From the IMG/VR virus record IMGVR_UViG_3300004686_000013, positions 1-26,414 of that record: DNA of 26,414 nt. One strand, given 5' to 3'. The notes under the pieces were generated by a model. It was not told the DNA's origin. It searched no databases and was given only the letters and a program-made list of their open reading frames with translations. This DNA comes from a virus. Taxonomy: Duplodnaviria; Caudoviricetes. This document shows, one piece after another, positions 2,007 through 20,452 of the stretch; within the stretch, counting starts at the first letter, position 1; every line of letters starts with the position of its first letter. The position numbers and the translations under genes are program-made.

Positions 2007-2729
2007 TTACCCCGGAAATTCTTGCAACAAAAACGATGTAGCATCTTCTAACATTAAAAACCCAGTATCGTTTTCCAATAGAATACCATCATTTTCTATT
2101 GGTCCGACTTGAGGCCCTGGCAACAATGACATAAAGACATTTTGCCCAAGATTATTAGACCAATTCACTGAATTATCAAGTAAATTGGTCCAATCTGCAT
2201 TTGTTAGACCTGTATCAATAGCCCCGGTTCTTGGAACTTCTGTATTGTCATATGGAAGACCAATTTCATTATCTCCAGGGACTTGAAAAGATTGTCCTGG
2301 CTGATGGTTCCATCCACCCGGTGGCTCACCAGTTTGTTGCGTAACACGTGTATTGTTATTTTCTGTAATACGTATTTGACCCGTTGGAACAGGCAATCCA
2401 GTCCAAAACCAAGCCGAATTTACAGTAGGAGAAACTGTGGGTTGCGGGGCAGATGTAACGCGAGTATTTTGTTCATATTCCTTATAACGCTCAGGTCGAG
2501 CATTCAAGATCGGCATAGGATCTGGCGGAAGAATACGTGGCTTTAATTGAGGCTGGGGGTCGTCAAAACACGTTTCACAAACTAAAATTCTCAAGTTTGC
2601 AAGGTTACGGCCTCTGTAGTCATACTGCCAGCGCAAATCTTTATGATTGTAAAGAAAACCACAACGATCACATATTGCAAATGCAGCGCTGTTATTTGGA
2701 TCAACTTTAGCTCTTCCGTGAGGATACAT
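2007..2729 (-). CDS. Conserved phage protein with N-terminal CxxC..CxxC (putative Zn-binding) domain
   Basis: CDRC...CETC...DPQPQL...DPMPILNARPE; acidic LLE-type repeats at the C-terminus; lies in the morphogenesis operon. Confidence 0.75.
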   Translation of the reverse strand: MYPHGRAKVDPNNSAAFAICDRCGFLYNHKDLRWQYDYRGRNLANLRILVCETCFDDPQPQLKPRILPPDPMPILNARPERYKEYEQNTRVTSAPQPTVSPTVNSAWFWTGLPVPTGQIRITENNNTRVTQQTGEPPGGWNHQPGQSFQVPGDNEIGLPYDNTEVPRTGAIDTGLTNADWTNLLDNSVNWSNNLGQNVFMSLLPGPQVGPIENDGILLENDTGFLMLEDATSFLLQEFPG

Positions 2730-3493
2730 TATTCCACATCCTCCACGTAAGAAAACTTAAACCCACCAACAGTTTTCCTGTTATTTTTCCCTAAACATAG
2801 TTCTATCACTGAACTTTTAGCTACATTATAAACTCTAGCCGCTTCACTCGCAGATGGGTATTGCCTTCCGTCATTTAAACAAACAACCTTTTTGGATAAT
2901 TTTATTGGTCCGTTTGCCCTTCTACCAGCTCCATCAATTCCATTAATTATTCCGATATGACTTTTATTAACGTCTACAATTTTACGGCGTTTTGCGCACT
3001 TAATTTCAATTTCTCTAATAAAAATATTTCTATCCTTTTCTTCAATTTCTTTATCGTAATAAATAAAGTGCAACCCATTCGCTGATCTGTATTTAAGATT
3101 GCAAACATCCGTTATTGAAACGGGTGATAATTTATTTTCAAAAGCCGCTTCTGTCGCACTATTATATATCCTACCTGTTTCCAGGCACATAACATTTTTT
3201 CTATTGTGAGGAATAATACCTACGGTTCCATCCCCACCATCTGTTAAATTAGCTATTTTATATCCACTATCTCTAAATGCCTTTATCCATGCTCTTTCCC
3301 AAAAACATGAAATTTCCCAGTTTGGTAATTCTGCAATCAAAGATATTTTAACACCGTGTTTTTTTACAATGTTTTTATGATATTGAGTTCTGCTGTGATG
3401 ATTTAACTTAAATGCACGATCTTTTTTTTGGCCTATCCCAACATAGAAAGGTTCATGCATATCTTCTTTAAAATGACAATATAAATATGGCAT
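2729..3493 (-). CDS. Free-standing GIY-YIG-like homing endonuclease with two NUMOD1-like DNA-binding repeats
   Basis: YLYCH...FYVGIG...R, conserved E, NLTDGGDG; two repeats VxCLxxGRxYxSAxEAA...SxxxxC; visibly AT-richer than neighbours. Confidence 0.85.
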   Translation of the reverse strand: MPYLYCHFKEDMHEPFYVGIGQKKDRAFKLNHHSRTQYHKNIVKKHGVKISLIAELPNWEISCFWERAWIKAFRDSGYKIANLTDGGDGTVGIIPHNRKNVMCLETGRIYNSATEAAFENKLSPVSITDVCNLKYRSANGLHFIYYDKEIEEKDRNIFIREIEIKCAKRRKIVDVNKSHIGIINGIDGAGRRANGPIKLSKKVVCLNDGRQYPSASEAARVYNVAKSSVIELCLGKNNRKTVGGFKFSYVEDVE

Positions 3494-4847: not shown

Positions 4848-5045
4848 TTAAATATCGCCGCCGTATTTGCGGTGCATCGCTTTCAGCGTTTTAGCTAAAT
4901 TAGCCTTTTTTGCCAAAGCGGGATTTTCAGAGTGAGAAGCTTTTTCCAACTTCCCTGAAGGAATGGTTTTGCTCTCCGGAACATGCAGGGCCTTATGTAA
5001 AGAACCTGGATGCTTTATAGCTTTTTGGATCCATTTCTCAGCCAT
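4848..5045 (-). CDS. Small basic phage protein (KWIQKAIKHPGSLH...), ends RKYGGDI
   Basis: Start moved to ATG 5045, which follows a GGAGAG RBS; Lys-rich, possibly an internal DNA-binding head protein. Confidence 0.75.
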   Translation of the reverse strand: MAEKWIQKAIKHPGSLHKALHVPESKTIPSGKLEKASHSENPALAKKANLAKTLKAMHRKYGGDI

Positions 5046-5057
5046 GACACTCTCCAT

Positions 5058-5081
5058 AAGAAAGAGGCGGCCGAAGCCGCC
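5058..5081 (-). terminator. Intrinsic terminator with cUUCGg tetraloop
   Basis: Minus strand GGCGGC-TTCG-GCCGCC-TCTTTCTT. Confidence 0.8.
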
Positions 5082-5090
5082 CCGATCTGA

Positions 5091-5423
5091 TTAGTCAAGA
5101 CCGTGCTTGGACTGAATGTCCGCGCCTGGACGGGTAGAAGTTTTCTGAGCAGCTTCCCAATCTTGGCTGATTGAGGCACCACCTTCTGCACGACCACCAC
5201 GCTTACGGGGAGCGCGGTCGCAACGAGCCATTGATTTCTCGCCTTCGACTTTGCCGCCCTTTTTGCGCTTCTTGGCATCTTTCATAACATTGCTGTCTTT
5301 ACCTGCGTAAGCCATATCATGCTCACGATCGTCCGCAAATGAGCCCGTAGGATCATTGGGGACATTAGCGGTAGAAGCGCGACCGCCTTCTTTCCGCTCC
5401 ATATGATGTTTCTTGCCTCTCAT
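5091..5423 (-). CDS. Small charged low-complexity protein with four RxxGG motifs
   Basis: RKEGGRA, RKKGGKV, RKRGGRA, RAEGGAS. ATG 5423 preferred over TTG 5429 on RBS spacing. Confidence 0.75.
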   Translation of the reverse strand: MRGKKHHMERKEGGRASTANVPNDPTGSFADDREHDMAYAGKDSNVMKDAKKRKKGGKVEGEKSMARCDRAPRKRGGRAEGGASISQDWEAAQKTSTRPGADIQSKHGLD

Positions 5424-5436
5424 GGCCAATCATCCT

Positions 5437-5892
5437 TTAGACTGAGTTTGGACCTTGGATATAATCTACCGTAATCGCTCCAACACCAGCGCCATCATTC
5501 GCACTCTTAATATAAATCATAACATCGGATGTTCCGACATTGATCCAATTATTTGTGCGCGTGGCATCTGCACCAGGAGCTACAACAACCGTTCCAATCG
5601 TGCCGCCGGCAACAGCCGTAGCAAGTTCAGTAGCAGTCGTCGATGTGCCAATGCTTAACGTAGAAGCAGAACCATTCCATGCCGTTGTAACAAACAGCTT
5701 GATACTAACAATTGTCGAACCGGCTGGAACAACAATATTCGTAGCTTGTGCAGCAGCTGTTTGAGTAAGTGACGTATCAATCTGGGCAAGAAGAGCCGTG
5801 CCTACGTTGGCAACATTAACACCAACCGTAGATCCGCTTGTATCTAGAATTGAGCCCGCTGTAATGGGCCCAGTGAAAGTAGTAGTGGTCAT
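5437..5892 (-). CDS. Putative capsid accessory/decoration protein (151 aa)
   Basis: Immediately downstream of the major capsid gene; MTTTTFTGPI N-terminus; beta-sandwich-like composition. Confidence 0.7.
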   Translation of the reverse strand: MTTTTFTGPITAGSILDTSGSTVGVNVANVGTALLAQIDTSLTQTAAAQATNIVVPAGSTIVSIKLFVTTAWNGSASTLSIGTSTTATELATAVAGGTIGTVVVAPGADATRTNNWINVGTSDVMIYIKSANDGAGVGAITVDYIQGPNSV

Positions 5893-5913
5893 TTGGGACC
5901 CTTTCAGTTGAGC

Positions 5914-5934
5914 AAAACTGGGCCCGAAGGCCCC
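5914..5934 (-). terminator. Hairpin/terminator after major capsid gene (cUUCGg loop)
   Basis: Minus strand GGGCC-TTCG-GGCCC-AGTTTT. Confidence 0.65.
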
Positions 5935-5943
5935 GCCATTCCA

Positions 5944-6858
5944 TTACGATGTTGGGAACGATCCGTAGATTGAACGCCAGTTGTAGTATCCGAACGAATA
6001 GCGCTCGTAGCCCTTCACCAACAGGTTGTCTGTCGTGAAGTCTACCTGCATGTCCATTTCGTAAGGGACACGTTCCATATAAACGAGACCTTTAATGTTC
6101 GTCAGTAGGAACCACGCAAAGTTTGACGTCAGGTAATCGTTTACCATGTAGCCTTCTGGCAAGCCGCCGGCCGTGGAAATGATTGCGTTCACGTCGTTGT
6201 TTGCAGTGCCTGGGCGCAGTTCGGTCTTTGTAAGACGAATTGCAACAGGTTCAAGCGTCGGTGGGATGATCAACTTGCGACCACGAGCAAAGATCTTCAG
6301 ACCAGCGATATCGCGGAAGTTCTGACGAATTGCAATCATTGCATTCAACAGAGAAGCTTCGTTAAGATCAACGTCGGTCGTAGGACGGTTTGCAATCGTA
6401 TTGCCGTCAATCGGATGGTTTGTAGCGCAAAGTGATACGCCGTCGCCACCAACTGACGCATTATACGTCGTTGCCGTGTTGAGGATGTTTGCGCCATAGA
6501 TTTCTTTGGTCTGTGAGAAGCTCTCAATCAGACCAAGGTTCGTTGGCGTAAACTGTGTCTTATACAGGTTATCATCAATTGCCTTACGGGTAATGGCATA
6601 GCCAAGACCGATTTCGTAATGCTCTTGATTGTAGACGTAACGCTCGGAAGCGTTGTTGTCAAAGTTTACAGCGCCGCCTTCAGTCTTGATTGCTGCAAGA
6701 CCGAGGTAACGCATTTCTGCTGTGCGCTCAAGAGCAAGGTTAGATTTGCTCTTCTCGAACATTTTGTCCCACTGCGATGGGATCTGAGGGTATTTACCCT
6801 CAACGCCACGGAGACCTGGTAAGAGCAGGTCGCGGATGGCTGAAAGATTAACTGCCAT
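5944..6858 (-). CDS. Major capsid protein (HK97 fold, Mu gpT-like family)
   Basis: 304 aa; LLLPGL...EGGAV.FD...LGYAITRKAIDDNLY...GGDGVSL...HP...KLIIPP.L...ERYSFGYYNWRSIYGS; strong GGAG RBS; follows the scaffold and decoration genes. Confidence 0.92.
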   Translation of the reverse strand: MAVNLSAIRDLLLPGLRGVEGKYPQIPSQWDKMFEKSKSNLALERTAEMRYLGLAAIKTEGGAVNFDNNASERYVYNQEHYEIGLGYAITRKAIDDNLYKTQFTPTNLGLIESFSQTKEIYGANILNTATTYNASVGGDGVSLCATNHPIDGNTIANRPTTDVDLNEASLLNAMIAIRQNFRDIAGLKIFARGRKLIIPPTLEPVAIRLTKTELRPGTANNDVNAIISTAGGLPEGYMVNDYLTSNFAWFLLTNIKGLVYMERVPYEMDMQVDFTTDNLLVKGYERYSFGYYNWRSIYGSFPTS

Positions 6859-6871
6859 GTGAGCCTACTCC

Positions 6872-7492
6872 TTAGATGCCAGTTACCGCGCCGTTAGAAC
6901 GCAGCATCTCGTTGTTGAAGCCGACGATGACGTAGTTATAAACTGACGTCGCGTCTGTGCCGTTAGCACCCGGTGGGTCGATAACCATGTCGACGACTTG
7001 GAACGGATACGTTGCAGTCGTGCCAACAGTGTCAACATACATGCCGGAAATGCCAGTAGAGGTGTTACCTGTGCCAACATTAAGCTGGACAAGTTTACCG
7101 ACTGGAGAAGTGCCGAAGGCTGTGTTTGTGCCGCTGATCTGGAAGCTTGAGCCGCTTGTCTGAACGACAAAGCGAGCATTCGGATCATCAATCACGTATG
7201 CGATGACGTCGCCAGTAGCGTCAGAGCCTGGCCAATAGTTTGACCAAACAGTGCGCTTCTGAGATGTCGAAAGATACTGGCAACCCCAGAAGATACCAGC
7301 AAGCGCAACCGTGCTTGCAGTAGCTTGCTTGATGTAACCATTTGTGGACGGAGACGTTACAGGGACAACTGCGTCGCCCTTGTAAATCGCACCGGCCGTT
7401 GACGCAATACGGCGAACCGATACGCGCCAATTCATCGGACCATTGCTGGTCGACGTCGGAGAAAATCCGAACGGAGCAAAATTGTTAGACAT
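6872..7492 (-). CDS. Putative capsid decoration/cement protein
   Basis: MSNNFAPFGF.P...IYKGDAV...GIFWGCQY...YWP...AYVIDDP; directly upstream of the capsid gene. ATG 7492 chosen as start. Confidence 0.7.
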   Translation of the reverse strand: MSNNFAPFGFSPTSTSNGPMNWRVSVRRIASTAGAIYKGDAVVPVTSPSTNGYIKQATASTVALAGIFWGCQYLSTSQKRTVWSNYWPGSDATGDVIAYVIDDPNARFVVQTSGSSFQISGTNTAFGTSPVGKLVQLNVGTGNTSTGISGMYVDTVGTTATYPFQVVDMVIDPPGANGTDATSVYNYVIVGFNNEMLRSNGAVTGI

Positions 7493-7524
7493 GACCAATC
7501 CCTATGGGGCTTGGATCCTTACGC

Positions 7525-7641
7525 AACTCCGGCGCGGAGGAGTTTCAGAATGGGGGTGTGTGATGTTCCCGGCGCGGGTCCATCGAAAGCCGCAAGCCTT
7601 TTGGCGCGGCGGGGTTCAATCCACTTCTCCCGGCGCGGGAG
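7525..7641 (-). promoter_or_regulatory. Array of four GCGCC-loop hairpins in the 5' leader of the decoration/capsid genes
   Basis: Plus-strand GGCGC at 7531, 7571, 7603 and 7632, each within a stem (CTCC/GGAG, CCC/GGG plus GATG/CATC, GCC/GGC, CTCCC/GGGAG). Confidence 0.7.
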
Positions 7642-7715
7642 CAGGAAATACATAAGCAACCAATGGTCGCTAAAATCGTCAGTTTATATTTATCAGACGT
7701 TTTATTAGAAAGCAA

Positions 7716-8279
7716 CTATTCGTCTGATGGAACTCCAATCGGAGAGCGAGACTTATTAAATCTATGAACCTCACGCGGTCCAAGATCAGATCCTCTACCG
7801 CTGCGAAGTTGCTGTTCTTTTGTAAACACCGCTTCTCGTGCTGCACGAGCTTCTTTCATCCTTGCTTCTTCAGTGAGGATAGAAGGGCGCTCCATGAGAA
7901 CTTGGCCTTCAACTTCAATTGTCTCGCCTTTCCAATTACCAGGCATCATACTTGGATATCGGCTTAGCGGGACTGGCTTCCAGCCTTGTCTGTCAAGCTC
8001 AACGATGTAGGAAGATTGTTCTTCTCCCATAACCGTGTGGCACTTCCATTGATAATCCCAACCCGGAGGCGGAGAAGGAGCCCAAAATTTATCTCGTGAG
8101 CCGTCTCCGTCTGGTTGGTTTTGGCGAATTTCCCGAAGACGGGCTTCAGCTCTGGCAACACTGTCCTCAGTAGCGTCTAATGGCTTGCGATCAACAGATG
8201 TGACGTCTAGGGTTTTTTTATAAGCCTTGCCTTCTCTTGTGCGACCATCAATATTGGAAAGTTCTTCAAAACTATTCAT
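7716..8279 (-). CDS. Conserved head-morphogenesis hypothetical protein (187 aa)
   Basis: PPPGWDYQWK...GWKPVP...GQVLMERP motif; lies between the scaffold and capsid genes. Confidence 0.8.
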   Translation of the reverse strand: MNSFEELSNIDGRTREGKAYKKTLDVTSVDRKPLDATEDSVARAEARLREIRQNQPDGDGSRDKFWAPSPPPGWDYQWKCHTVMGEEQSSYIVELDRQGWKPVPLSRYPSMMPGNWKGETIEVEGQVLMERPSILTEEARMKEARAAREAVFTKEQQLRSGRGSDLGPREVHRFNKSRSPIGVPSDE

Positions 8280-8292
8280 GTTCTAATTCCTT

Positions 8293-9234
8293 TTAAGCCG
8301 AAAGCTTGCCTTCGCGGATCAAGGCAGCCTTATTGCGGGCATAAGTTTCAATGGCTTTTTCTCTTGGTAGATCTGGATCCATCAATAAGGCTTGTTCTAC
8401 TTCGGCAGCCGACAAAGTCATTGTCGAACCACCATTGTAGCCAGATCGCCCTATTGTCGGAGAAGACGACGTGACGGGTGTAGACGCCATCGCCTGTCTT
8501 TTTATGTTCGATCTATTATTTGAGATCCCAAGCTCATTCTCAATATATGAGAAATACTCCGGGCTTTCAGCCTTTATGCCTTTTAATACAGTCGCCGCCT
8601 GATGGGCAGCAGACAGTCGGTTCATGTCCGCAGCAGCATTCGGATGCTCTCTTAACCAAGACGCTGATCGCGGTGATAGTTTTGATAAAAGCGCCTCAAA
8701 CTGTTGTTCCTGTGAAAGAGGCTGTGGTGGTGGTTCATATTGCGGTTGTTGAGGAGGAGTATCGGCAACTCTCCCTTCGGTGGCTTGTAGATATTTTTCA
8801 ATATCACTTTTGCCTTCGTATAAACCTTTAAGGTTAGCATTCGCCCAAGCAAGGACATTGTTTGCCTCGGCCGCTGCGGAATAATCTCCTGAAGCCATGG
8901 CATCCGAATAAGTTCGTTTTGCCTGCTCGATAGTTTGCTGCATATTTTCAATGCCGCTTAAAACTACCTTGTAATTACTGCTATGAAGATCGGCCTGAGC
9001 ATATTGCGCGGCCTTAGCTTGTTCTAAGGCATATTGTTCTGCCCTGTGACGAGCTATTTTCTCTTGCTCATGGCGTCTATTGACCTCTTCTAATTGAGAT
9101 TTTACTTCGAGAAGGGCCTTTTCACGATCATCCACTGTGTCTTGTGAGGGTTTTTCTCCCTCAAGGACTACTTCTACTGGACCGTCATCCTCAATCGGGA
9201 CTTCAATCTCTTTTTCATCGCCAATATCAATCAT
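8293..9234 (-). CDS. Putative scaffolding protein
   Basis: Acidic N-terminus, long coiled coil, C-terminal 'TLSAAEVEQA...YARNK' tail. Start ATG 9234 follows GAGGAG. Confidence 0.75.
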   Translation of the reverse strand: MIDIGDEKEIEVPIEDDGPVEVVLEGEKPSQDTVDDREKALLEVKSQLEEVNRRHEQEKIARHRAEQYALEQAKAAQYAQADLHSSNYKVVLSGIENMQQTIEQAKRTYSDAMASGDYSAAAEANNVLAWANANLKGLYEGKSDIEKYLQATEGRVADTPPQQPQYEPPPQPLSQEQQFEALLSKLSPRSASWLREHPNAAADMNRLSAAHQAATVLKGIKAESPEYFSYIENELGISNNRSNIKRQAMASTPVTSSSPTIGRSGYNGGSTMTLSAAEVEQALLMDPDLPREKAIETYARNKAALIREGKLSA

Positions 9235-9244
9235 TTTTAGCTCC

Positions 9245-9661
9245 TCAATAGATAAAATCCGGGTCAGATACCCGCATCCGAACACTGGCGTCGCCTACTA
9301 TTCGACAATCGACAGTGTCATCTTTGGATATTGACTTCTGAAGAGTGTTTAAGGTCACTCGCCAGCCGTCAGAGGGCCTAAAAACGATCCAATCACCTAC
9401 ATTTATGTCCCTAAACTTGTTTCCGTTGTCATCAACGTAGCAAAATGGGCCCATTTTTACGACTAATCCAACTTTTCCTTGGTGAACATCCTCTGTTCGA
9501 GTGCTGTCAGCCAATATTAACCCGGATTTTGTCTTTTCAGGACGTTTGTAAATCGCAACCAGCATGTCGGATCCAAAAACATCCACCCCAGATAAGTCAC
9601 CAACTCGATCCAAAATCGCTTGTTTCGGATCAACTTCATGTAACATCGCTATTGCTGGCAA
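9245..9661 (-). CDS. groES: GroES-like co-chaperonin (Cpn10)
   Basis: EKTKSGLILADS mobile loop, GLVVKMGP, INVGDWIVF. TTG 9661 preferred over GTG 9670 on AGGAG spacing. Confidence 0.88.
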   Translation of the reverse strand: MPAIAMLHEVDPKQAILDRVGDLSGVDVFGSDMLVAIYKRPEKTKSGLILADSTRTEDVHQGKVGLVVKMGPFCYVDDNGNKFRDINVGDWIVFRPSDGWRVTLNTLQKSISKDDTVDCRIVGDASVRMRVSDPDFIY

Positions 9662-9728
9662 TGTCGACACTCCTATTTATCCCAGAACGCGCGTCTGGGG
9701 TCGCTTTCCAAGAGCATCTTGGAAATTT

Positions 9729-10232
9729 CTAAAAACTTCTCTCAAATTGCCCATAGTTTTTTATTGCGGCCAATTGATATGCGATAGAGGCGGCAGCAGG
9801 ACAATCAAATAAACCAAGATGTTTACTTATTTTTCCTATTTTAGCTCGCCACATTCCTGATTGTTTATGCCAATAAACACCTTTAGGAGGCCATGCTCGC
9901 ATTGGACGTTTATTTTGATTTTGTTGAGATCTCGTCGCTAAACGCAAGTTTTCCCATCTATTGTCTAATGGATCACAATTTATGTGGTCTATTTCAGATT
10001 TAGGAAAACTTCCTGTCATATATAGCCATGCTATACGATGGGCCCGATAGGCTTTTCCTAAAATCCAAAGTTGACATCTTCCTTTTGCGTCTAATGTTCC
10101 GGCTTTTTTACCAGCCCACTTAGCATCCCATGCAGGTATTCCATGATTTTTATGGAAAAACCATCCAGTTAGTTGATCATAATATAATATTGATTTTAAA
10201 TATTTTTGCGTGATATTTGATAAATTAGCCAT
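9729..10232 (-). CDS. HNH homing endonuclease with C-terminal AP2-like domain
   Basis: YRAHRIAWLYMTG...IDHINCDPLDNRWENLRLATRSQQNQN; KGVYWHKQSGMWRAKI...LGLFD. Start ATG 10232 follows GGAGA. Confidence 0.92.
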   Translation of the reverse strand: MANLSNITQKYLKSILYYDQLTGWFFHKNHGIPAWDAKWAGKKAGTLDAKGRCQLWILGKAYRAHRIAWLYMTGSFPKSEIDHINCDPLDNRWENLRLATRSQQNQNKRPMRAWPPKGVYWHKQSGMWRAKIGKISKHLGLFDCPAAASIAYQLAAIKNYGQFERSF

Positions 10233-10260
10233 TTGCTTATCTCCAGAAAGCTTGTGGTTA

Positions 10261-10300
10261 AAGGGGTGGAGATGGTGACACATCTCTATCCCTTGTTTTT
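10261..10300 (+). terminator. 14-bp hairpin plus U-tract, antisense to the HNH leader
   Basis: AAGGGGTGGAGATG-GTGACA-CATCTCTATCCCTT-GTTTTT; two G-U pairs form only on the plus strand. Confidence 0.55.
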
Positions 10301-10508
10301 AGCGCCTTTTATCTTCTATTCCCAGGACCTTTTTCTGGGCTTCTTGTGCGGCATTCAGAGCATCTGATATGCCCTTCAAGCGACCTACCCTGTGTCGATA
10401 GTCGTCGAAGCTTTGGGCCTTGCCGTTTGCCAACTCTAGCGTGAGTTGTTCATACAAATCGGCAAGGATTTTCACTAGCTCATCATAGAGCATCAAATCT
10501 AAGTTCAT
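10299..10508 (-). CDS. Small conserved hypothetical protein (69 aa)
   Basis: Helical; 'NGKAQSFDDYRHRVGRLKGI' motif; abuts the upstream stop codon (TAA ATG). Confidence 0.75.
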   Translation of the reverse strand: MNLDLMLYDELVKILADLYEQLTLELANGKAQSFDDYRHRVGRLKGISDALNAAQEAQKKVLGIEDKRR

Positions 10509-11774
10509 TTACCCGCCAGTTTTGCTATTAGGCGTCGGATTTTGTCCTTGCAGATAATTGAGGAGCGCTTGGTTCCCAAATTGGTTCTGCAATGCACTCA
10601 TTCCAGCATTATAAGAAGCAACATAAGGGTCTACTGATCCGCCAACGTCGGGCGTTACTGCTTGGGATTGCATGAATGCGTCACCGGCAGGGCTATTCAT
10701 AATAGCGTTTTCTACGTCTTGGCGTGTGGCCAAACCTTTATTTAACTGATCAGTCCAATATTGCGCCTCTTGTTGGCTTGGATTTCTTCCCACATCAGAT
10801 TGGAATACTTGGTTGATAAAGTTTCCGCTCTGATTGGCGTAGTCTGCCAAAGAAGCTTCGATTTGTCCTTGTGTTGTTGTCCCGGACGTAAGTGCGTCAG
10901 TCCAATATTTTAATCCCTCAGGATCTGGGTCTCTTCCCATATATTGCTGATAGGCAGCATTTAGGAATTGATCCGTCGGCAAATTCTGCGACGAAACACT
11001 TGCGTCGTAGTTTTGGTAATGCCCGGGTAAGTTTTGCGCTGTGCTTGTGTATTTTAATGCCGGAGAAGTAGAGGCCGGCATTTTTGCTAATACGTCTGGC
11101 GGCAGTGTGGACAACGAAGAAGCCGGAACTGTCAAACCGGCAGGCGGTCCAGATGTAGGACCTCCTTGAGCCGTTTGTCCTGCCGGTGGGGCAGGTTGAT
11201 TAGCAGCTTGCTGCGCTTGCATTGCAGCCTGAACTTGCGGTGGAAGAAGATTAGGGTCCATCTGGCCAAATCTGGCTAGTGTATCTCCCGTCATCATCAT
11301 CGAATTTGGCTGATTATACATTGAGCCAAATGCCGCTAGTGGAGCCTGCGCAAATCCTTGAGCCGGGCCTGGAGCGTTAAATGCCGCAAGACCTGCCGCC
11401 TGTTGCTGCTGAGGTGTCCCACCAGATGGGGCAGACGTAGCAGGATTGCTACCGGCTAATATACCACCATCAGCTCTTCTTGCCCTTCCGCCATATCGAC
11501 GGCCTTGCTGAGAAGATCCAGCCCACGACGGAGTTATCCCCGCAGTTGCAGGCTGGTTTTGTGGCTGAGGCGGCTGAGCAACCGGAGCGGGCTGGGAGCT
11601 AACATCCATGCCGTTATCATACATGGCTGATCGCGTCCCAAACCCATCATGGGTCGGAGATTGCTCAAGTGACTTACCCAGGGTTTGATTACCTGCATTC
11701 TGAACCTGATTAGGGTCAGCTGCTTGCGGAGAAGCGGCAAAGCTGTCCTGGGTATTCTGATACTGAGAACCCAT
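10509..11774 (-). CDS. Gln/Pro/Ala-rich virion-associated protein with two DUF4214-like repeats; may be expressed as a -1 frameshift fusion with 11807..12955
   Basis: FLNAAYQQYMGRDPDPEGLKYWTDAL and FINQVFQSDVGRNPSQQEAQYWTDQL; ends KTGG-stop; no clear SD before ATG 11774. Confidence 0.8.
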   Translation of the reverse strand: MGSQYQNTQDSFAASPQAADPNQVQNAGNQTLGKSLEQSPTHDGFGTRSAMYDNGMDVSSQPAPVAQPPQPQNQPATAGITPSWAGSSQQGRRYGGRARRADGGILAGSNPATSAPSGGTPQQQQAAGLAAFNAPGPAQGFAQAPLAAFGSMYNQPNSMMMTGDTLARFGQMDPNLLPPQVQAAMQAQQAANQPAPPAGQTAQGGPTSGPPAGLTVPASSLSTLPPDVLAKMPASTSPALKYTSTAQNLPGHYQNYDASVSSQNLPTDQFLNAAYQQYMGRDPDPEGLKYWTDALTSGTTTQGQIEASLADYANQSGNFINQVFQSDVGRNPSQQEAQYWTDQLNKGLATRQDVENAIMNSPAGDAFMQSQAVTPDVGGSVDPYVASYNAGMSALQNQFGNQALLNYLQGQNPTPNSKTGG

Positions 11775-11806
11775 AAGACCGCCAAAGCCTGTCGTGGCTC
11801 CTCCGC

Positions 11807-12955
11807 CTAGATAAAACCCTTCCGGCCAGCTTTATATGCCGCAAGTTCTTCTTTCTGGAGGCGGCCTTCGCCTGAACCAGCGCCGGCCGTGAGGTCCTGT
11901 GTAGAGCGAACTTTACCACCTCGTTTAAATGGACGGGGTGGCATACCGCCTGGCGCACCCATACCCGGAGCGCCCCCTAATCCCTGTGGCATACCGCCCA
12001 TTGGAGGTGCCGGCGGCATTGCTCCGCCCATTGGTGGGGCTGGTGGCATTCCGCCCATAGGAGGTGCCATAGGGGCGCCACCTGGAGGCATTGGAGGCAT
12101 GCCGCCCGGAGCGCCGCCCACTGGAGGCATGGGGGGGCGTGGCATCCCTCCAGCTGGCATAGGAGGTAAGCCCCCCATTGGATTTGTCTGACCACGGCTA
12201 TCATTGAAATTAATTGTCACGCCACCTTTGGTAGCAGACTTGCCGCCACCTAAAGATGTGCCGCCGCTAAGAGATCCGCCATCAGCGCGCTTTGCACGAC
12301 CACCTTTACGGAGACCTTCCATGCTCTGCTGCTCGTCATGCTTTTTATCAAGAGCGGATTTCTCCCACTTCTCCATCGACATGCCGTGCTTTTTAGCAAG
12401 CTTCTTATCTTCGCGTAGGTCTTCCTTGGAATGTTCCCACTCCATGTGTCCGACCTTGCCACCCTTTTTCATGGCGTATTGGCCTTTGCCAAGATTGCCT
12501 TTGCGATAATCTTCGGGGGAAATCTTATTAGCTTCTCTCTCCGCGTAATTTCGCATAGCCTGCTTATCAGCCTCGGAAGGGCCAGATTGAGATTTCTCGG
12601 ATTTCAAGCCTTTCAAACGCTCCTCAGAACGCATGGCTTCCTCTGGGCTAGGCAACATACCGCCGTCATCACGCTTTTTACGGGAAGCTTTGTCCAAGCG
12701 CTTTAAAGACATGGCGCCCTTAACAGAGCCACCAGCCTTGCGCATGATACGTGGATTGACTTCTTGTGAAAGCTTCGGCTCAGCGAAGATAACGCCAAGG
12801 CCAGCCTGTTCATTGGTGTTCAGGCCCTTCTCGCCATCCCAGCCGTCTTCAGTTTTTTTCTTAGCTGATTTGGCTGCCTTTGAGCCTTTTCCAGCATAAG
12901 TATCAATCTTTTTATCATGGCCTGCTTTGGCCTCTTTAGCATATGGATGTGCCAT
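11807..12955 (-). CDS. Lys-rich / Gly-Met-Pro-rich low-complexity protein with six xxxGG motifs (putative internal virion protein)
   Basis: RKAGGSV, RDDGGML, MKKGGKV, LRKGGRA, RADGGSL, FKRGGKV; GGMPP repeats; C-terminal GAGSGEGRLQK. Confidence 0.8.
   Translation of the reverse strand: MAHPYAKEAKAGHDKKIDTYAGKGSKAAKSAKKKTEDGWDGEKGLNTNEQAGLGVIFAEPKLSQEVNPRIMRKAGGSVKGAMSLKRLDKASRKKRDDGGMLPSPEEAMRSEERLKGLKSEKSQSGPSEADKQAMRNYAEREANKISPEDYRKGNLGKGQYAMKKGGKVGHMEWEHSKEDLREDKKLAKKHGMSMEKWEKSALDKKHDEQQSMEGLRKGGRAKRADGGSLSGGTSLGGGKSATKGGVTINFNDSRGQTNPMGGLPPMPAGGMPRPPMPPVGGAPGGMPPMPPGGAPMAPPMGGMPPAPPMGGAMPPAPPMGGMPQGLGGAPGMGAPGGMPPRPFKRGGKVRSTQDLTAGAGSGEGRLQKEELAAYKAGRKGFI
11813..11819 (-). other. Candidate -1 programmed ribosomal frameshift site G GGU UUU
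   Basis: X XXY YYZ heptamer in the correct phase two codons before the TAG of 11807..12955. The -1 frame is open into 10509..11774. Confidence 0.6.
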
Positions 12956-12982
12956 CGTCTTATACCTGTTGTTGATGGGAAG

Positions 12983-13051
12983 AGGCTCAGACGGCGCGTC
13001 CGATTAGCCTATAAGATTGTAAAATATCGGCACTACGGCGCGTAGGTCGAT
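12983..13051 (-). promoter_or_regulatory. Two GCGCC-loop hairpins in the 5' leader of 11807..12955
   Basis: Minus strand ATCG..CTAC-GCGCC-GTAG..CGAT and AGGCT..GAC-GCGCC-GTC..AGCCT. Confidence 0.7.
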
Positions 13052-13090
13052 TGTATCATAAAGCAAAGATTTTCATACCTTTGCGAGTTA

Positions 13091-15868
13091 TCAATGTTTT
13101 TTAGCAGCCCTCATATTATCCACGAGATTTGGATAAGGGCGCCCGGCAGCCTTAGCCGCAGCTTTAGCAGATGACTTTTGCTCGCTTGTTAGTGGATCTG
13201 GCTTACCAAGTGACTTAGGACGAGGTTTATCCCACACTGGTCCGCCAGTTTTATATTTCCTAGCCACCGAAAGGGCGTCACTAACAGCCCCGCCTTTATT
13301 CATTTGTCCTGGTGCTAATCCTTGACCGCCAGTTCCAGGGACAGCAGATCCGTCAACAACCATAGGTGATAAATATAAAGACCCAGGATCGGGCGTTCCT
13401 GTGGAAGTTCCTAATGTTCCGGCAGTTCCACTACCAGAAGGCAATCCTGTGTAACCAAGTTGATAATAATCAATTGGAGTGGTTGCTGTTGGACCAGGAA
13501 TATTCGCCGTAGCAAGCGTTGATCCAGCTCCAGAAGATGGAGCAACGCCTGTTCCAATGCCAGATCCCACTCCAACAGGAACGCCTATTGAAGCCCCAGC
13601 GCCAGAATTAACACCAACATTACCGCCGGCACCTGTGCCTGCTAATTGTTGACCTAAATTAGTTCCTGGCTGTGTGCCGCCGGTAATAGTTCCGCTACCA
13701 ACTGAAGTGCCAGTTCCCGTAGTAGGAAGTGTCCCAGCATATGGGACATATTGTCCTTGAGCATTTTTTGTAAATTGATAATTTGCTAACTGGCTTCTTG
13801 AAATGATTGTTGACGGATCCTGATAAAATGGACCGGGGGTAGCATTATCAGCCAAAACATTTTGATAACTAGCGTCGTCCAAAACTTTTACAGGTTTACC
13901 ATTAATCATTACAGTCGACATATACGGAATAGTATTTCCTTGAACAGTATTGGATGGAATAGTTTGCGTCTGCGGTGGAGGAGTTATTTGGTAAGGTTGA
14001 TAACTGCTTCCCTGAGACGTTGCATACTGTTTACCTTCATCAGATTGGGGCAAATATTTAGCCAATACATCTTGTGTTACTTGCCCTGTTCCTAATTGGC
14101 CAGTCCAATATTGCTGTTCTGCTGAAGTTGGGGCGCGACCAAAATCCTGTTGATACGCATCATTTAAAAAAGAAGAGTTTTTAAAATATTGTTGTGCAGG
14201 GTCGCTTCCTGCAAATGCAACCTCCACTGATTGAGGCGTTGCTGTTCCTGCACGTAATTGATCTGTCCAATATTTAACACCATTTGGATCAGGAGGTGTG
14301 CCAAGATCGTTTTTATATAGTTTATTAATAAAATCAGTGTAATCAGATGGAATTAATTTAGCTGGATCGGCCGCTACCGCCTTTAGGTTGTCAGGAATAT
14401 TATAATCAACAAAAGATTTACCATAATCACCTTTCGAGGCATTTGGTGCTATTTGTTGAAGCTGTTGTTGTATTCCTTCAGCATATCCCAATCTTTTTTG
14501 GAATGTGCTTTTCGCGTCTTGCGCCGCTGAACTATTAGAGGAAATATTCCCTCGGCTATTTATAAACGCCCCAGGGCTTTCTACTGCCAATGCTCCGGCC
14601 ACAGCAGATTGGAGATCTGGAGCATAGTTCATATAATCATTAACAGATGAAGGATTAGCGAGATCGTATGATGATCCTAAATTTCCTGTAGTATAATTTA
14701 CCCAAAACGATGTTTGAGCTGCTGGATCGGATGGACTTAAATTATTAGCTTTTGCATATTTTTGAAAGGCAGTATTCATTGGGCCAGTAAATTGAAACGC
14801 ACCATAACCACCGCCACCACCAGTTTGCGGCTGATTAAAGTTTAAATAATAGTTTCCATCAGAATTGGCCTTGGATGATTGTCCTTCAGTAGCAGCATTT
14901 GCAGCATAAGCAATGGCCGCATTGTAGGACATCCCTTGGTTCATCAAGTTTAAGGCCAAATTAGTGGCATTTGTCCAATCATATTTTTTAGGAATGTCTG
15001 CCGTCGATGATTGAATATTTTTAGGATCAGACAACCATTGGACTGAATTTTGAGCGCCTGAAGATAAATTTGTCCACCCTAAATTATAGCCCGTCCTAGA
15101 TGTGTCACCAACATATTGACTAGGATCTGTTGTCCCGCCCGATAACCCAGATGTGCTTTGTCCACCGGTAGCACGATATTTTCGGGCTACTTCCAAAGCC
15201 CCACCATCAGAACACTTCCACTTTCTCAAAGATTTATTAATCCGGCTATCTGGATCATTGGCTGTCTCAGAGCTGGTAAGCTTAGCTTTCATGCCTTTCA
15301 TACGAGCGCAGAAACTATCTTTACGGGATCCGCCTTCCGGCTGAGGACGCTTAATGTCATGACCCTCGGAACGGAGAGAAGCTCGACCCTTTTCGTTCAA
15401 CCCGCCCTCTGGGTTTTTGCCCTCAGACCTTTGCCAAGCCGGTGTCTTAGCCATCTTATTATTCCCTCGTGCCGATCCGCCAGTAGCCATTCCGGCAGGC
15501 TTAGGCCAATCTTGCTCTGGCGACCATGCAGGATATTTGTCTTTACCAAGTTCAAAGAAGGGAGACTTTCCTTCTGCTTCACGGCGTTTTGCAGCTTCAT
15601 AAGCCCTATTATCAGTATCTTGTGGTGGGCTTCTATGAAGTCTTTCCGCCATTAATACAGCTGCCTTGTCGGCATCGCTTATATTTTCATAAATAGACGG
15701 ATATTGGATTTCTCTATCTGAAGAATATTCAGAAACTATTCCAGAGTTGTCTAAATTTTTAATTGGACCGAGAAAACCAATATCTTTTGATTTAAGCGCA
15801 TCTAATTTATCTGTTTCTGGGTTGTATCTTTGCCCCCATGGATGTCGAAGAGGAAGTGTCTTAGCCAT
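13091..15868 (-). CDS. Multi-module virion protein: N-terminal module, DUF6321-like basic module, phage tail lysozyme-like domain, two DUF4214-like repeats, Gly/Thr linker, basic C-terminal module
   Basis: KTPAWQRSEGKNPEGGLN...SFCARM...SLRKWKC; GMSYNAAIAYAANAATE...GYGAFQFTG...AQTSF...RLGYA; modules separated by xxxGG motifs. Start ATG 15868 follows GGAGAG. Confidence 0.8.
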   Translation of the reverse strand: MAKTLPLRHPWGQRYNPETDKLDALKSKDIGFLGPIKNLDNSGIVSEYSSDREIQYPSIYENISDADKAAVLMAERLHRSPPQDTDNRAYEAAKRREAEGKSPFFELGKDKYPAWSPEQDWPKPAGMATGGSARGNNKMAKTPAWQRSEGKNPEGGLNEKGRASLRSEGHDIKRPQPEGGSRKDSFCARMKGMKAKLTSSETANDPDSRINKSLRKWKCSDGGALEVARKYRATGGQSTSGLSGGTTDPSQYVGDTSRTGYNLGWTNLSSGAQNSVQWLSDPKNIQSSTADIPKKYDWTNATNLALNLMNQGMSYNAAIAYAANAATEGQSSKANSDGNYYLNFNQPQTGGGGGYGAFQFTGPMNTAFQKYAKANNLSPSDPAAQTSFWVNYTTGNLGSSYDLANPSSVNDYMNYAPDLQSAVAGALAVESPGAFINSRGNISSNSSAAQDAKSTFQKRLGYAEGIQQQLQQIAPNASKGDYGKSFVDYNIPDNLKAVAADPAKLIPSDYTDFINKLYKNDLGTPPDPNGVKYWTDQLRAGTATPQSVEVAFAGSDPAQQYFKNSSFLNDAYQQDFGRAPTSAEQQYWTGQLGTGQVTQDVLAKYLPQSDEGKQYATSQGSSYQPYQITPPPQTQTIPSNTVQGNTIPYMSTVMINGKPVKVLDDASYQNVLADNATPGPFYQDPSTIISRSQLANYQFTKNAQGQYVPYAGTLPTTGTGTSVGSGTITGGTQPGTNLGQQLAGTGAGGNVGVNSGAGASIGVPVGVGSGIGTGVAPSSGAGSTLATANIPGPTATTPIDYYQLGYTGLPSGSGTAGTLGTSTGTPDPGSLYLSPMVVDGSAVPGTGGQGLAPGQMNKGGAVSDALSVARKYKTGGPVWDKPRPKSLGKPDPLTSEQKSSAKAAAKAAGRPYPNLVDNMRAAKKH

Positions 15869-15869
15869 C

Positions 15870-18155
15870 CTACTCTCCATCTTCCGCAGTTGGCATTCCC
15901 ATCGGCTGCGACATCAAATTAAATATACGATCCTTATGCTTCTCATTGGCGTCATGACGATGTTGTTCCGTCATCTGGCCATGTTGAGCAAGAAGATCCT
16001 TATCCTTGTTTTTCTCGTCTTGGCGGAGCTTGTCAGCATGGACCATTGCAGTTTGCTGAAGCTTCATCGCTTCTAATTGCAATTTACCTTTGCGGTCCTC
16101 AGCATGGTTCTGGGCATCCGTAAACGCCTTCATCTGATCAGTCTTGATCTTCTGAACATTTGCCTCAGTAACCATCGCCTTCGTCTGATTGTCGACCTGA
16201 TTAGACTGGGCCTTTATTTGAACCTCGGCCTGTTTTGCCTGAGCCGTTATCATCTTGGCCTGGGCTTCCATCATCAGTGCAGGATCTTGTTGCGGGCCTT
16301 GTGGTGGTTGTTTACTCCACAGGCTGTCAATATCCTCAATATCTGTCATCTCAAGAATACGACGATCGACTTCCTGCATGTCGTAAAGTTGTGGGTTCTG
16401 AGCGGCAAGTTGTTTGAGTGCAATCGCCTTCTGGATCCTTAATGTCTGAGAAGAACAATTTGGATCAGCCTTCGGGACAATATCGTAATTGTCTAAGGCT
16501 TGCTGGAGTAACTCAGCATCTTTCTGGAACCCTGGATTTCTATTAGATCTCCAAAGGCTCTCCGGATCTCTACGGAACAATTCCTTGAGTAATGAGAATT
16601 CCTTGCCCTGTGCCTGATGCATTCTCTTATGAACGGCATTCAGGACTTTTGTGGCCTGCTCAATCATCGCAATGGTAGATCCTACGGGAATATCCTGCCT
16701 TCCCTCTCCTACGGCCATTTCTGCCGTGCCACCAACACGCTGGGCAGTCTGTTCCACATTCTGGATCATTTGCATAAAGCCGCTGGATATATCCCGATAT
16801 GGAAGCGGGAGAAACGCCTCCTTTAAAGGAACGCCATCGACGTCTAATGGCGCCACTTGTCCTGGCCCAACCCGGATCGTGGTCGTTTGCTGGCGGCCGG
16901 ATGATCGAGCCATAACGCCACCCGGAAAATTAGCCAGCATGCCATTGTCAAGAGCAATTCGCCAAGCCGCTGTAAGAGCGCGATTAGCATTACCAAGAAT
17001 ATGCAAAAGACCGAGGTTAAGACCGGGGAACGACGGAACAAATACATACTCAACGAAGACTTCTTTTCGTGTATAATTTTCATCGCCCTCTTCCCACCAA
17101 CGGCGGATTTCGAGGACTTGCCTGCTGTCCTTGTCTAACGTCACACGATAAGGAAGGGGCAACCCGGTGGCTTCGCCATCTTCTTTATGCTCAAAACCAC
17201 GCAGATCTAACTCACAATAACACTCGTAAATTTCTCTATCGACCTCTCGGTGTTCCATCAAGCTCTTCGGCTCAACACCTGAGATGTTTGCCAGTTCAAT
17301 GTCAACAACATTGCCTAGCGCAAAATTTGTGGAAGTAAGTGCGACGTCTCTCCAAATGCCGGCAAGCTGCATTCTTCTTACGTCTGAAGGCTTCATCTTA
17401 CTACGATGAGTAACCCTGGCGGCCGCTTCAATAGCTACGGCACCTTCGGAAAGGATCAAATCCTTACGGTCAATTGTCTCTGATACAGGACGACGCTTCA
17501 AAGGATGATAATAAACCTTCTTGTATGCCTCTCCACCCAATCCAAGCGAAAAGAACATACGATCAGTATCGGGATAATATTCAGGAGCCCCAGACGTCAG
17601 ATAATGGTTCATGTCTGTCTCAAGGGCGTTTGCCGCTTGATCGAGCTGCTTTATCTGATCACCTTCATTCGAGACCTTCACCGGTCCATCAGCCGGCAAC
17701 AATTCGCCGCGGGCATTTGCCTGGAACCTTAGGACAGCTTCCAATAACAACGGATGCTTAACGACCGAGATGCCCTCGTCATTTGGTTCTGATCTTGGCT
17801 CTTCGAGCTTAATGCCTAGGAGTTCAATTCCCTTGGCGACGTCTTCTAATCTCTGATCCTGACGCGTGCGATCGTCATTGATCAATCTCAAAAGCTCATC
17901 GGCAACGCCAGTGAGAACACCTATCTCGACATGCATCGCCAAATTGGCATCATGATCCTTGCTATCTTCGCTGGGCGCCTGTGGCAATCCGCCAAAGTTA
18001 ATCTGCACCCCGCCATCGGTAAGATCAATTTGAATGACTTGATCGCCCGGCTTTGCCTTTTGCTCAGGTGGCGTGAGGTCTACCTGCTCAGGCTTTTCCT
18101 GCGGCATTCCAGGAGTAGGAACCTGCCGTAAGTTCATCGGGGCTACATTGGCCAT
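15870..18155 (-). CDS. Portal protein
   Basis: 761 aa downstream of TerL; HPLLLEAVLRFQANARGELLPADGPVK, YKKVYY, LPYRVT, GLLHILG, AVHKRMH; coiled-coil C-terminus as in P22-like portals. Confidence 0.9.
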   Translation of the reverse strand: MANVAPMNLRQVPTPGMPQEKPEQVDLTPPEQKAKPGDQVIQIDLTDGGVQINFGGLPQAPSEDSKDHDANLAMHVEIGVLTGVADELLRLINDDRTRQDQRLEDVAKGIELLGIKLEEPRSEPNDEGISVVKHPLLLEAVLRFQANARGELLPADGPVKVSNEGDQIKQLDQAANALETDMNHYLTSGAPEYYPDTDRMFFSLGLGGEAYKKVYYHPLKRRPVSETIDRKDLILSEGAVAIEAAARVTHRSKMKPSDVRRMQLAGIWRDVALTSTNFALGNVVDIELANISGVEPKSLMEHREVDREIYECYCELDLRGFEHKEDGEATGLPLPYRVTLDKDSRQVLEIRRWWEEGDENYTRKEVFVEYVFVPSFPGLNLGLLHILGNANRALTAAWRIALDNGMLANFPGGVMARSSGRQQTTTIRVGPGQVAPLDVDGVPLKEAFLPLPYRDISSGFMQMIQNVEQTAQRVGGTAEMAVGEGRQDIPVGSTIAMIEQATKVLNAVHKRMHQAQGKEFSLLKELFRRDPESLWRSNRNPGFQKDAELLQQALDNYDIVPKADPNCSSQTLRIQKAIALKQLAAQNPQLYDMQEVDRRILEMTDIEDIDSLWSKQPPQGPQQDPALMMEAQAKMITAQAKQAEVQIKAQSNQVDNQTKAMVTEANVQKIKTDQMKAFTDAQNHAEDRKGKLQLEAMKLQQTAMVHADKLRQDEKNKDKDLLAQHGQMTEQHRHDANEKHKDRIFNLMSQPMGMPTAEDGE

Positions 18156-18359
18156 TTACTTCTCGTGGATTGCAAGCCAACCGTGTGGCTCTTCATTAAA
18201 AGGATTGCCGCCGTGATACCAGAACAACTCGCCGTCTATTTTGACGGTCATTGCCCATCCCTCAATACCAGTATCAGACAGGATCTTCACTAAGGCCATT
18301 TTCTGCTCAGGCAATTCATCCATCGGCCTGACAACAGAATGGTCAATAATAAATGACAT
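18156..18359 (-). CDS. Small hypothetical protein (67 aa)
   Basis: ATG 18359 after GAGG fills the gap between TerL and portal; ends 'EPHGW'. Confidence 0.6.
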   Translation of the reverse strand: MSFIIDHSVVRPMDELPEQKMALVKILSDTGIEGWAMTVKIDGELFWYHGGNPFNEEPHGWLAIHEK

Positions 18360-18366
18360 CGCCGCC

Positions 18367-20097: not shown

Positions 20098-20452
20098 TCA
20101 TCCGACTGAAATCGCCCGGTGCGCCCGTCTCTTTTCTGTCGATCATCAGGCCATGCATCTTGGCCAAACTATCAGCTGCGCCCTTGGCAGCATTAAAGTT
20201 CCCGACCTTCTTGGCATTCACAAGCAGGTCCGCATAAACATTGGTCATGCTTTCTACTGTGACCTTCAGATCAGTCTCAGTAATTTTAAGCAGTTCAAGG
20301 ATCCTTTCGGACACCCTTTTTCTCCCTTTGAGCTTATACGGATTGTCCCAGTGCTTTTTATATCCTGCTGCCTCGTAGGCTTTTAGGGCGGACATGCCCT
20401 TCACTATGTTTTGGCAGAATAATTCCTGCCGAACATTCGGCAAGGCTGGCAT
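19991..20452 (-). CDS. terS: Terminase small subunit
   Basis: N-terminal HTH 'RQELFCQNIVKGMSALKAYEAAGY'; 'LAKMHGL..DRKE.GAPGDF'; directly upstream of and overlapping TerL. Confidence 0.8.
   Translation of the reverse strand: MPALPNVRQELFCQNIVKGMSALKAYEAAGYKKHWDNPYKLKGRKRVSERILELLKITETDLKVTVESMTNVYADLLVNAKKVGNFNAAKGAADSLAKMHGLMIDRKETGAPGDFSRMNDDQIRQFISATASEIGAYSGGSEGADEEGEEAGC

Follow-up and report, generated by a model that had tools for sequence, protein, structure and literature searches.

The internal proteins of T4 carry a single N-terminal capsid-targeting sequence, and the gp21 prohead protease of this phage cuts after Glu, while the viral proteases adenain (C5) and pS273R (C48, from African swine fever virus, ASFV) cut after glycines and need non-primed residues. 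We analyzed a 26,414-nt stretch of DNA from a tailed phage (Caudoviricetes), IMG/VR record IMGVR_UViG_3300004686_000013, positions 1 to 26,414 (hereafter the window, which is the entire contig), in which five open reading frames (ORFs) carry repeated copies of a di-glycine motif. We propose, with a probability of about 0.5, that the motif X-[A/K]-x-G-G-x-[V/A/I/L], placed at the joints between protein modules, is a maturation site cut before the Ala/Lys and not after the glycines. As in the T4 internal proteins, a short peptide on internal proteins would be tied to loading and maturation; unlike the T4 signals, the motif recurs within the proteins, and the P1 residue of the counted sites is R, K, F, Y, M or L instead of Glu. 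It shares with the adenain and pS273R sites a di-glycine in basic core precursors, but the joint lies two residues before the GG and no C48 enzyme was found in five complete relatives. An encoded C39 peptidase, as for double-glycine leader peptides, was not found in five complete relatives either. On the features tested, the motif works like known virion maturation and targeting signals and falls outside the adenain, pS273R, C39 and T4 systems. The polyvalent proteins of phages, reportedly described by Iyer et al. in 2017, likewise contain swappable enzyme modules (Phage_lysozyme2, ART-PolyVal) in proteins that are likely injected.

The same peptide in the same register is present in two ejected virion proteins, T5 pb2 (R|AEGGMM) and lambda gpH (FATGGF and YATGGY). 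These siphophage tail proteins have one or two sites near the C-terminus, whereas the window has 19 sites in five podophage head-module proteins. The literature found did not describe the motif or its processing as a system, subscription papers being largely outside its coverage. The five ORFs are as follows:

4848..5057, minus strand, 69-aa basic protein with a partial match to Fusellovirus VP2 / phrog_15706 and a single C-terminal motif, R63|KYGGDI-stop (RKYGG at 4857..4871, minus strand)
5091..5429, minus strand, 112-aa basic protein with four motifs (RKEGG 5382-5396, RKKGG 5253-5267, RKRGG 5193-5207, RAEGG 5178-5192)
10509..11774, minus strand, 421-aa low-complexity protein with DUF4214 repeats (RRYGG 11487-11501, RADGG 11463-11477, SKTGG-stop 10512-10526)
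11807..12955, minus strand, 382-aa basic Pro/Gly-rich protein with six motifs (RKAGG 12728-12742, RDDGG 12659-12673, MKKGG 12458-12472, LRKGG 12299-12313, RADGG 12275-12289, FKRGG 11915-11929)
13091..15880, minus strand, 929-aa modular protein with DUF6321 (154-221), phage tail lysozyme PF18013 (304-418), DUF4214 and phrog_34011 (882-929) (MATGG 15476-15490, CSDGG 15200-15214, RATGG 15161-15175, MNKGG 13289-13303, YKTGG 13241-13255)

The original prediction had placed about 20 copies of the motif in these five ORFs; the ORFs lie where it put them, all on the minus strand, and all 19 listed peptides are present. Its pattern, [RMLFY]xxGGx[VALI], is enriched, with 15 sites against a mean of 1.20 and a maximum of 7 in 2000 shuffles. 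When the 42 GG pairs were kept fixed and their flanks redrawn, the mean rose to 1.67, again with a maximum of 7 (5000 draws). The other window ORFs (27 translated) gave a single match, in the portal.

The pattern applied to relatives (the 80 best of 290 related IMG/VR stretches) was looser than the one above and was set after the window had been seen. In the matching gene blocks the motif was enriched about 8- to 12-fold: 120 motifs versus 10.7 in shuffled sequences for 36 portal-to-GroES proteins, 268 versus 22.0 for 99 further proteins upstream of GroES, and 74 versus 9.2 for 97 proteins after the capsid gene. None was found in 52 capsid, 48 scaffold, 45 GroES, 54 ORF7716-like, 54 ORF6872-like and 26 adaptor sequences; 11 portal sequences had 5 (1.7 shuffled), and 112 tail proteins showed no excess (15 versus 23.7). 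Its occurrence is restricted to two blocks of genes in the window and, among relatives, to ejection genes. A consensus of [R/K/F/Y/M/L]-[K/A]-x-G-G-[R/K]-[V/A/T/L/I] was obtained from 399 contexts. The GG of ORF 4848 is kept in 14/14 homologues, those of RKEGG, RKKGG and RKRGG of ORF 5091 in 11/16, 16/16 and 15/16, and those of the six motifs of ORF 11807, in order, in 24, 19, 19, 21, 22 and 24 of 24, with GG kept in 0-13 of 24 at the 13 non-motif GG sites of the same ORF, a poorly aligned Pro/Gly stretch. The underlying DNA is diverse (346 distinct 21-nt words among 415 sites) and the codon usage of the first Gly resembles that of non-motif GG pairs, indicating that selection acts on the peptide; a DNA-level repeat or recombination site was rejected on the same grounds.

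Comparison of modules with their stand-alone counterparts places the joint ahead of the motif, as X|[A/K]-x-G-G-x-[V/A], unlike the register of the original prediction. In ORF 13091, DUF6321/phrog_3477 (140-223) is bracketed by M131ATGG and C223SDGG, and phrog_34011 (882-929) directly follows Y876KTGG; for this ORF these borders uphold the earlier claim that the motifs fall at module boundaries. The module ends coincide with the stop codons of stand-alone homologues. The DUF6321 module also occurs as a stand-alone gene in relatives, and among 47 distinct modules 31 stop right after the Cys, 11 continue as C|[AS]DGG, 2 as CH|[AS]DGG and 3 in other ways, while none (0/47) ends in GG; a regex recount gave 18, 10, 1 and 1 of 30. 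At the other end, the start is Met in 24 of 36 modules and an xAxGG joint in 7; of the 5 that remain, 4 have a related joint with GG or SG. A short element, ALxxAR(K), stands ahead of several ORF 13091 motifs, before CSDGG/RATGG and YKTGG (ALEVARKYRATGG, ALSVARKYKTGG); 13 of 26 such elements in relatives have a motif within 20 residues, and the element may be a second part of the signal.

The same register is found at a mapped cut. According to the available parts of the papers cited here by PMC number, the cut in pb2, the tape measure protein of T5, follows R1127 (PMC10038345), and a C-terminal pb2 fragment of mass 9702 was obtained from undigested T5 tails (PMC11937500). The sequence at this point is FVPR|AEGGMM; the C-terminal piece is computed at 9701.7 Da for a cut before AEGG, and a cut after the GG would give 9387.4. 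Sites of this T5 type, X-A-x-G-G-x-hydrophobic, are present in the window (RADGGIL, RADGGSL, MATGGSA and others). Lambda gpH is also cut, which has been known since 1974, with the site and catalyst stated to be unknown in a 2025 paper (PMC12617516); gpH carries F733ATGG and Y778ATGG. The podophage RIO-1 was reported to be unprocessed (PMC4819975), and the strict motif was found in 0 of the 18 RIO-1 virion-module proteins checked, which is consistent with this reading but weak.

The cargo protein C1 (gp45) of crAss001 has no overall homology with the window proteins, but carries x-[A/K]-x-G-G at 207, 261, 330, 371, 425, 560 and 826 and has one module weakly like ORF 4848, whose profile matches gp45 residues 391-421 (E 0.002, in a set of 30 proteins). 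The portal-bound density of gp45 corresponds to residues 425-552 and its tail piece to residues 214-245 (PMC10172136; PDB 7QOG chain M). Residue 425 is the Ala of N424|AFGG, and the motif that follows is F|AYGG at 560; the motif sites at 207 and 261 flank the tail piece. The GG at N|AFGG is invariant in 24/24 aligned homologues. Four gp45 peptide regions named in the available part of the same paper (79-101, 181-190, 275-300 and 307-320) span no motif site.

In the mechanism that we propose, cargo precursors would be loaded into the prohead and then cut at X|[A/K]xGG. Cutting would release basic modules or peptides, possibly DNA-condensing, along with enzyme modules such as the lysozyme; the basic pieces predicted to be released have net charges of up to +11. 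Each released piece would gain an A/K-x-G-G N-terminus, which may itself dock (compare the A425 piece of crAss001 gp45 on the portal). The variability of X (R, K, F, Y, M, L, C, N) would place recognition mostly on the primed side.

Matching enzymes were each sought in five complete relatives, as the original prediction had suggested. No C48 (Ulp1-like) protease was found (0/5, four genomes motif-rich and one motif-free; controls positive 1/14) and no C39 peptidase (0/5; controls positive 7/14), the C39 result leaving room for a host enzyme; the C5 search gave 0/5, with no control genome positive. In 26 virion-module proteins of G001, the closest complete relative, a Pfam scan gave no peptidase and a sub-threshold S74 match. 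ORF 7716, named earlier among possible partners of the motif, proved not to be linked to it. As a protease or reader it was rejected, having no Pfam or PHROG match (only unnamed Atlas clusters) and no invariant Cys or His among 50 sequences, with homologues in 5/13 motif-free genomes. GroES was rejected as a motif-linked gene, being annotated also in the motif-free CRP-901, QDWS535, MW202796 and MW202785. In relatives, the first ejection protein (L085:9188-12745; L368:4913-11311) is encoded after a GNAT acetyltransferase gene and starts with MG(G/S). A short way ahead of a motif it contains a chaperone domain like Peptidase_S74 (E 3e-11 in MW202675, sub-threshold in G001); domains of this kind are self-cleaving, and this one could be a rival enzyme.

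Another candidate is a small domain, GxTD..P..GE[FY]V plus two helices, which follows the motif in lambda gpH and in related podophage genes. It was not found in the six frames of the window, and the arrangement seen in tape measure proteins, a motif followed by a GE-V element, is absent there too; in 5/5 close relatives a gene of its own encodes the domain, past the point at which the contig ends. In G001, whose capsid protein is 94% identical, this gene (L095:1501-2034, 177 aa) immediately precedes the GNAT gene and an ejection gene that carries 10 motifs. Of 27 related genomes, three provided the seeds for a profile that found the domain in 14 and not in the other 13; a narrower alignment found it in 5/30 records and missed divergent copies. 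With the domain protein left out, strict-motif z-scores were 1.2 to 13.1 in the 14 genomes with the domain versus -1.4 to 1.9 in the 13 without it, overlapping at the low end. Nine of the 13 domain-free genomes belong to one clade, five records are incomplete or partial, and the co-occurrence amounts to only 2 changes on a quick capsid tree. The clade of CRP-901 (L083) and the related genomes G006-G016 has the same variable post-portal cargo block with neither motif nor candidate domain and is a natural negative control. HTVC023P and Caulobacter phage RW are cultured phages of the group that have both.

Matches to the domain were found in 376 phage records, the 60 listed being mostly tape measure proteins, and in the PDB for the tape measure proteins of Douge and JBD30 (lambda was a seed). 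T5 pb2C resembles it only loosely. Close relatives have the domain in tandem, the first copy with an invariant GRTD but SG[SA]YV and the second with an invariant AGGE and no TD, while single-copy forms carry both the TD and the GE elements; such a split of Asp and Glu would fit a composite Asp/Glu site. Predicted models of the domain are confident (pLDDT 84) and show no clear match to a solved fold. Foldseek against the PDB gave no match at E<=0.001, BFVD returned only uncharacterized phage proteins, and a VIA wide structure search was dominated by an N-terminal hairpin, the domain alone reaching a best Z of 3.0 and the crAss001 chain not being listed. The top named Atlas match was crAss_CARG1 (0.85, 117 shared features), and we regard kinship with the crAss001 domain as a lead only. 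The GxTD..GE[FY]V domain, encoded outside the contig, is our best candidate for the protease, a tentative choice held well short of even odds. More doubtful still is a single widespread maturation system of podophages, crassviruses and siphophage tails, in which a GxTD..GE[FY]V Asp/Glu protease would act on X|A-x-G-G, cutting tape measure proteins in cis (lambda gpH F733, T5 pb2 R1127) and cargo polyproteins of the head in trans; gp45 would then yield its head and tail pieces as separate products.

Several observations weigh against cutting before the Ala/Lys. Both the cutting, in this phage as in its close relatives, and the virion location of the ORFs are inferred, and the stop-codon register marks where modules join, not that cutting occurs. 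An older estimate of the T5 pb2 cut, V1148 +/-1, is cited against R1127 (PMC11937520), and the lambda fragment starting at F733 would be 12.5 kDa versus about 14 kDa in print. In the crAss001 paper gp45 is described as a single chain, the available part of its main text has no 'cleav' passage (PMC10172136), and a density boundary in gp45 is possible without any cut. No protease was identified for the motif in the C48 and C39 searches or the G001 Pfam scan. The candidate domain and the crAss001 gp45 domain align with hhalign probabilities of 2.3% and 0.2%, and the domain profile finds nothing in the crAss001 virion region or T5 pb2 unless these are used as seeds. Four listed sites (RAEGG, SKTGG-stop, CSDGG and RATGG) fall outside the full pattern, and RAEGG of ORF 5091 keeps its GG in only 1/16 homologues. 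The bare [AK]xGG, with GG kept as a unit, was not significant (17 versus 12.2, reached in 184/2000 shuffles), so the signal needs the residue before it and the hydrophobic residue after it. This lack of significance and the Gly-rich composition of three long ORFs are what a chance product of composition would offer, a reading we consider negligible given 15 sites versus 1.67 with the GG pairs fixed and the enrichment and site conservation in relatives. Some sites are only 5-8 residues apart, and one terminal piece would have 6 residues, a spacing that suits a multivalent tag better than the release of modules.

Such a tag, uncut and repeated, would load cargo onto the portal, the scaffold core or a reader protein, in the manner of a capsid-targeting or encapsulin cargo peptide, and we consider it a serious possibility, though well below an even chance. 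The dense spacing and the one to six copies per protein agree with it, as do the terminal copies (xxGGxx-stop, at most 15 residues from the end, at 22/565 sites; 23 near C-termini in all and more near N-termini), the ordering on the portal of a gp45 segment that starts with the motif, and the failure of the searches to find a protease; however, the sole event mapped at a motif of this kind is cutting (T5 R1127|AEGG), and the T5 and lambda motifs sit in tail proteins that need no capsid loading. Docking and cutting are compatible, and both could hold; the earlier claim of a protein-level signal, cut or docked, on likely internal proteins is supported. That the motif is a flexible linker or a basic nucleic-acid-binding repeat travelling with swapped modules, with no dedicated reader, is unlikely: its spacing is fixed, a hydrophobic residue stands two after the GG, acidic forms (FADGG, YAEGG) occur often, conservation does not extend to nearby GG pairs outside the motif, there is no DNA-level repeat, and whole lineages are without the motif and the candidate domain together. 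What speaks for it is the basic context with R/K at P1 and P1', the gain and loss of modules at the motif in gp45 homologues, and the partial match of ORF 4848 to a virion DNA-binding protein family. One of the two readings in the original prediction was a cut after the GG, as by adenain, pS273R or a deubiquitinase, releasing proteins that end in GG. ORF 10509 does end in GG-stop, some sites read M/L-x-x-G-G, and basic core precursors resemble adenovirus pVII and pX. This form is nevertheless very unlikely, since 31/47 DUF6321 modules stop before the xxGG and none ends in GG, 0/565 motif-pattern sites in relatives end at GG-stop, the T5 mass excludes a cut after the GG and fits one before AEGG, and neither C48 (0/5) nor C39 (0/5) enzymes were found.

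The window contains the terminase, the portal, the head module and the start of the tail module, with the genes read on the minus strand; the last gene of the contig is tail-fibre-like, and the ejection genes therefore lie outside. Judged by its sequence, it is the head module of an HTVC023P-type podophage (short-tailed): the major capsid protein shares 41% identity with its counterpart in pelagiphage HTVC023P and 80% with the one in MW202675, and in addition to this capsid similarity it has the order portal, cargo block, GroES, scaffold, two conserved genes and capsid. The motif-bearing ORFs occupy two variable blocks, one from portal to GroES (13091, 11807 and 10509) and one after the capsid gene and ORF 5437 (5091 and 4848), and from their gene positions and domain content they are likely virion-associated and packed in the head. 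Neighbouring genes are:

15870..18155, minus strand, portal protein (phrog_1216, E 8e-20), a possible docking surface by analogy with crAss001
5944..6858, minus strand, major capsid protein of the HTVC023P type, without the motif
8293-9285, minus strand, likely scaffold (from position and sequence), without the motif
9245-9670, minus strand, GroES co-chaperonin, without the motif
7716..8279, minus strand, conserved head-module protein of 187 aa, unsupported as a protease candidate

If cutting occurs before the Ala/Lys, the motif predicts a lambda gpH cut at F733|A734; a JBD30 cut at F1019|A1020, versus the R1066 on which the authors speculate in the available part of their paper (PMC11445458); and crAss001 gp45 cuts at 206|207, 260|261, 424|425 and 559|560. 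Were gp45 cut, the published single chain threaded over 420 A from head to tail would need revising. The motif would also flag cargo and injected proteins, with the borders of their modules, across an uncultured phage group of very high abundance; phage-based protein delivery might use it as a tag for loading or release.

Residues 7-24 of ORF 4848 match the Fusellovirus capsid protein VP2 family (31.2 bits, above the Pfam cut-off), and a family of DNA-binding internal proteins may be held in common with this archaeal virus family. DUF4214 repeats are common to ORFs 10509 and 13091, which suggests a duplicated shared module. PDB sequence searches with ORFs 13091 and 11807 gave no match. Two free-standing homing endonuclease genes (phrog_314-like, 2729-3493; HNH-AP2, 9729-10283) are inserted in the head and tail modules. 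The large terminase ORF (18156-18533, 18367-20097; 19991-20452) overlaps its neighbours, and an insertion separates its two matched stretches. In MinM2 (L084:15886 onward), a very large virion-module protein annotated as RelA/SpoT comes after the motif-bearing ejection genes, and the motif-free relative MW202796 has a tail-module gene annotated 'ubiquitin' (L394:34127-34372).

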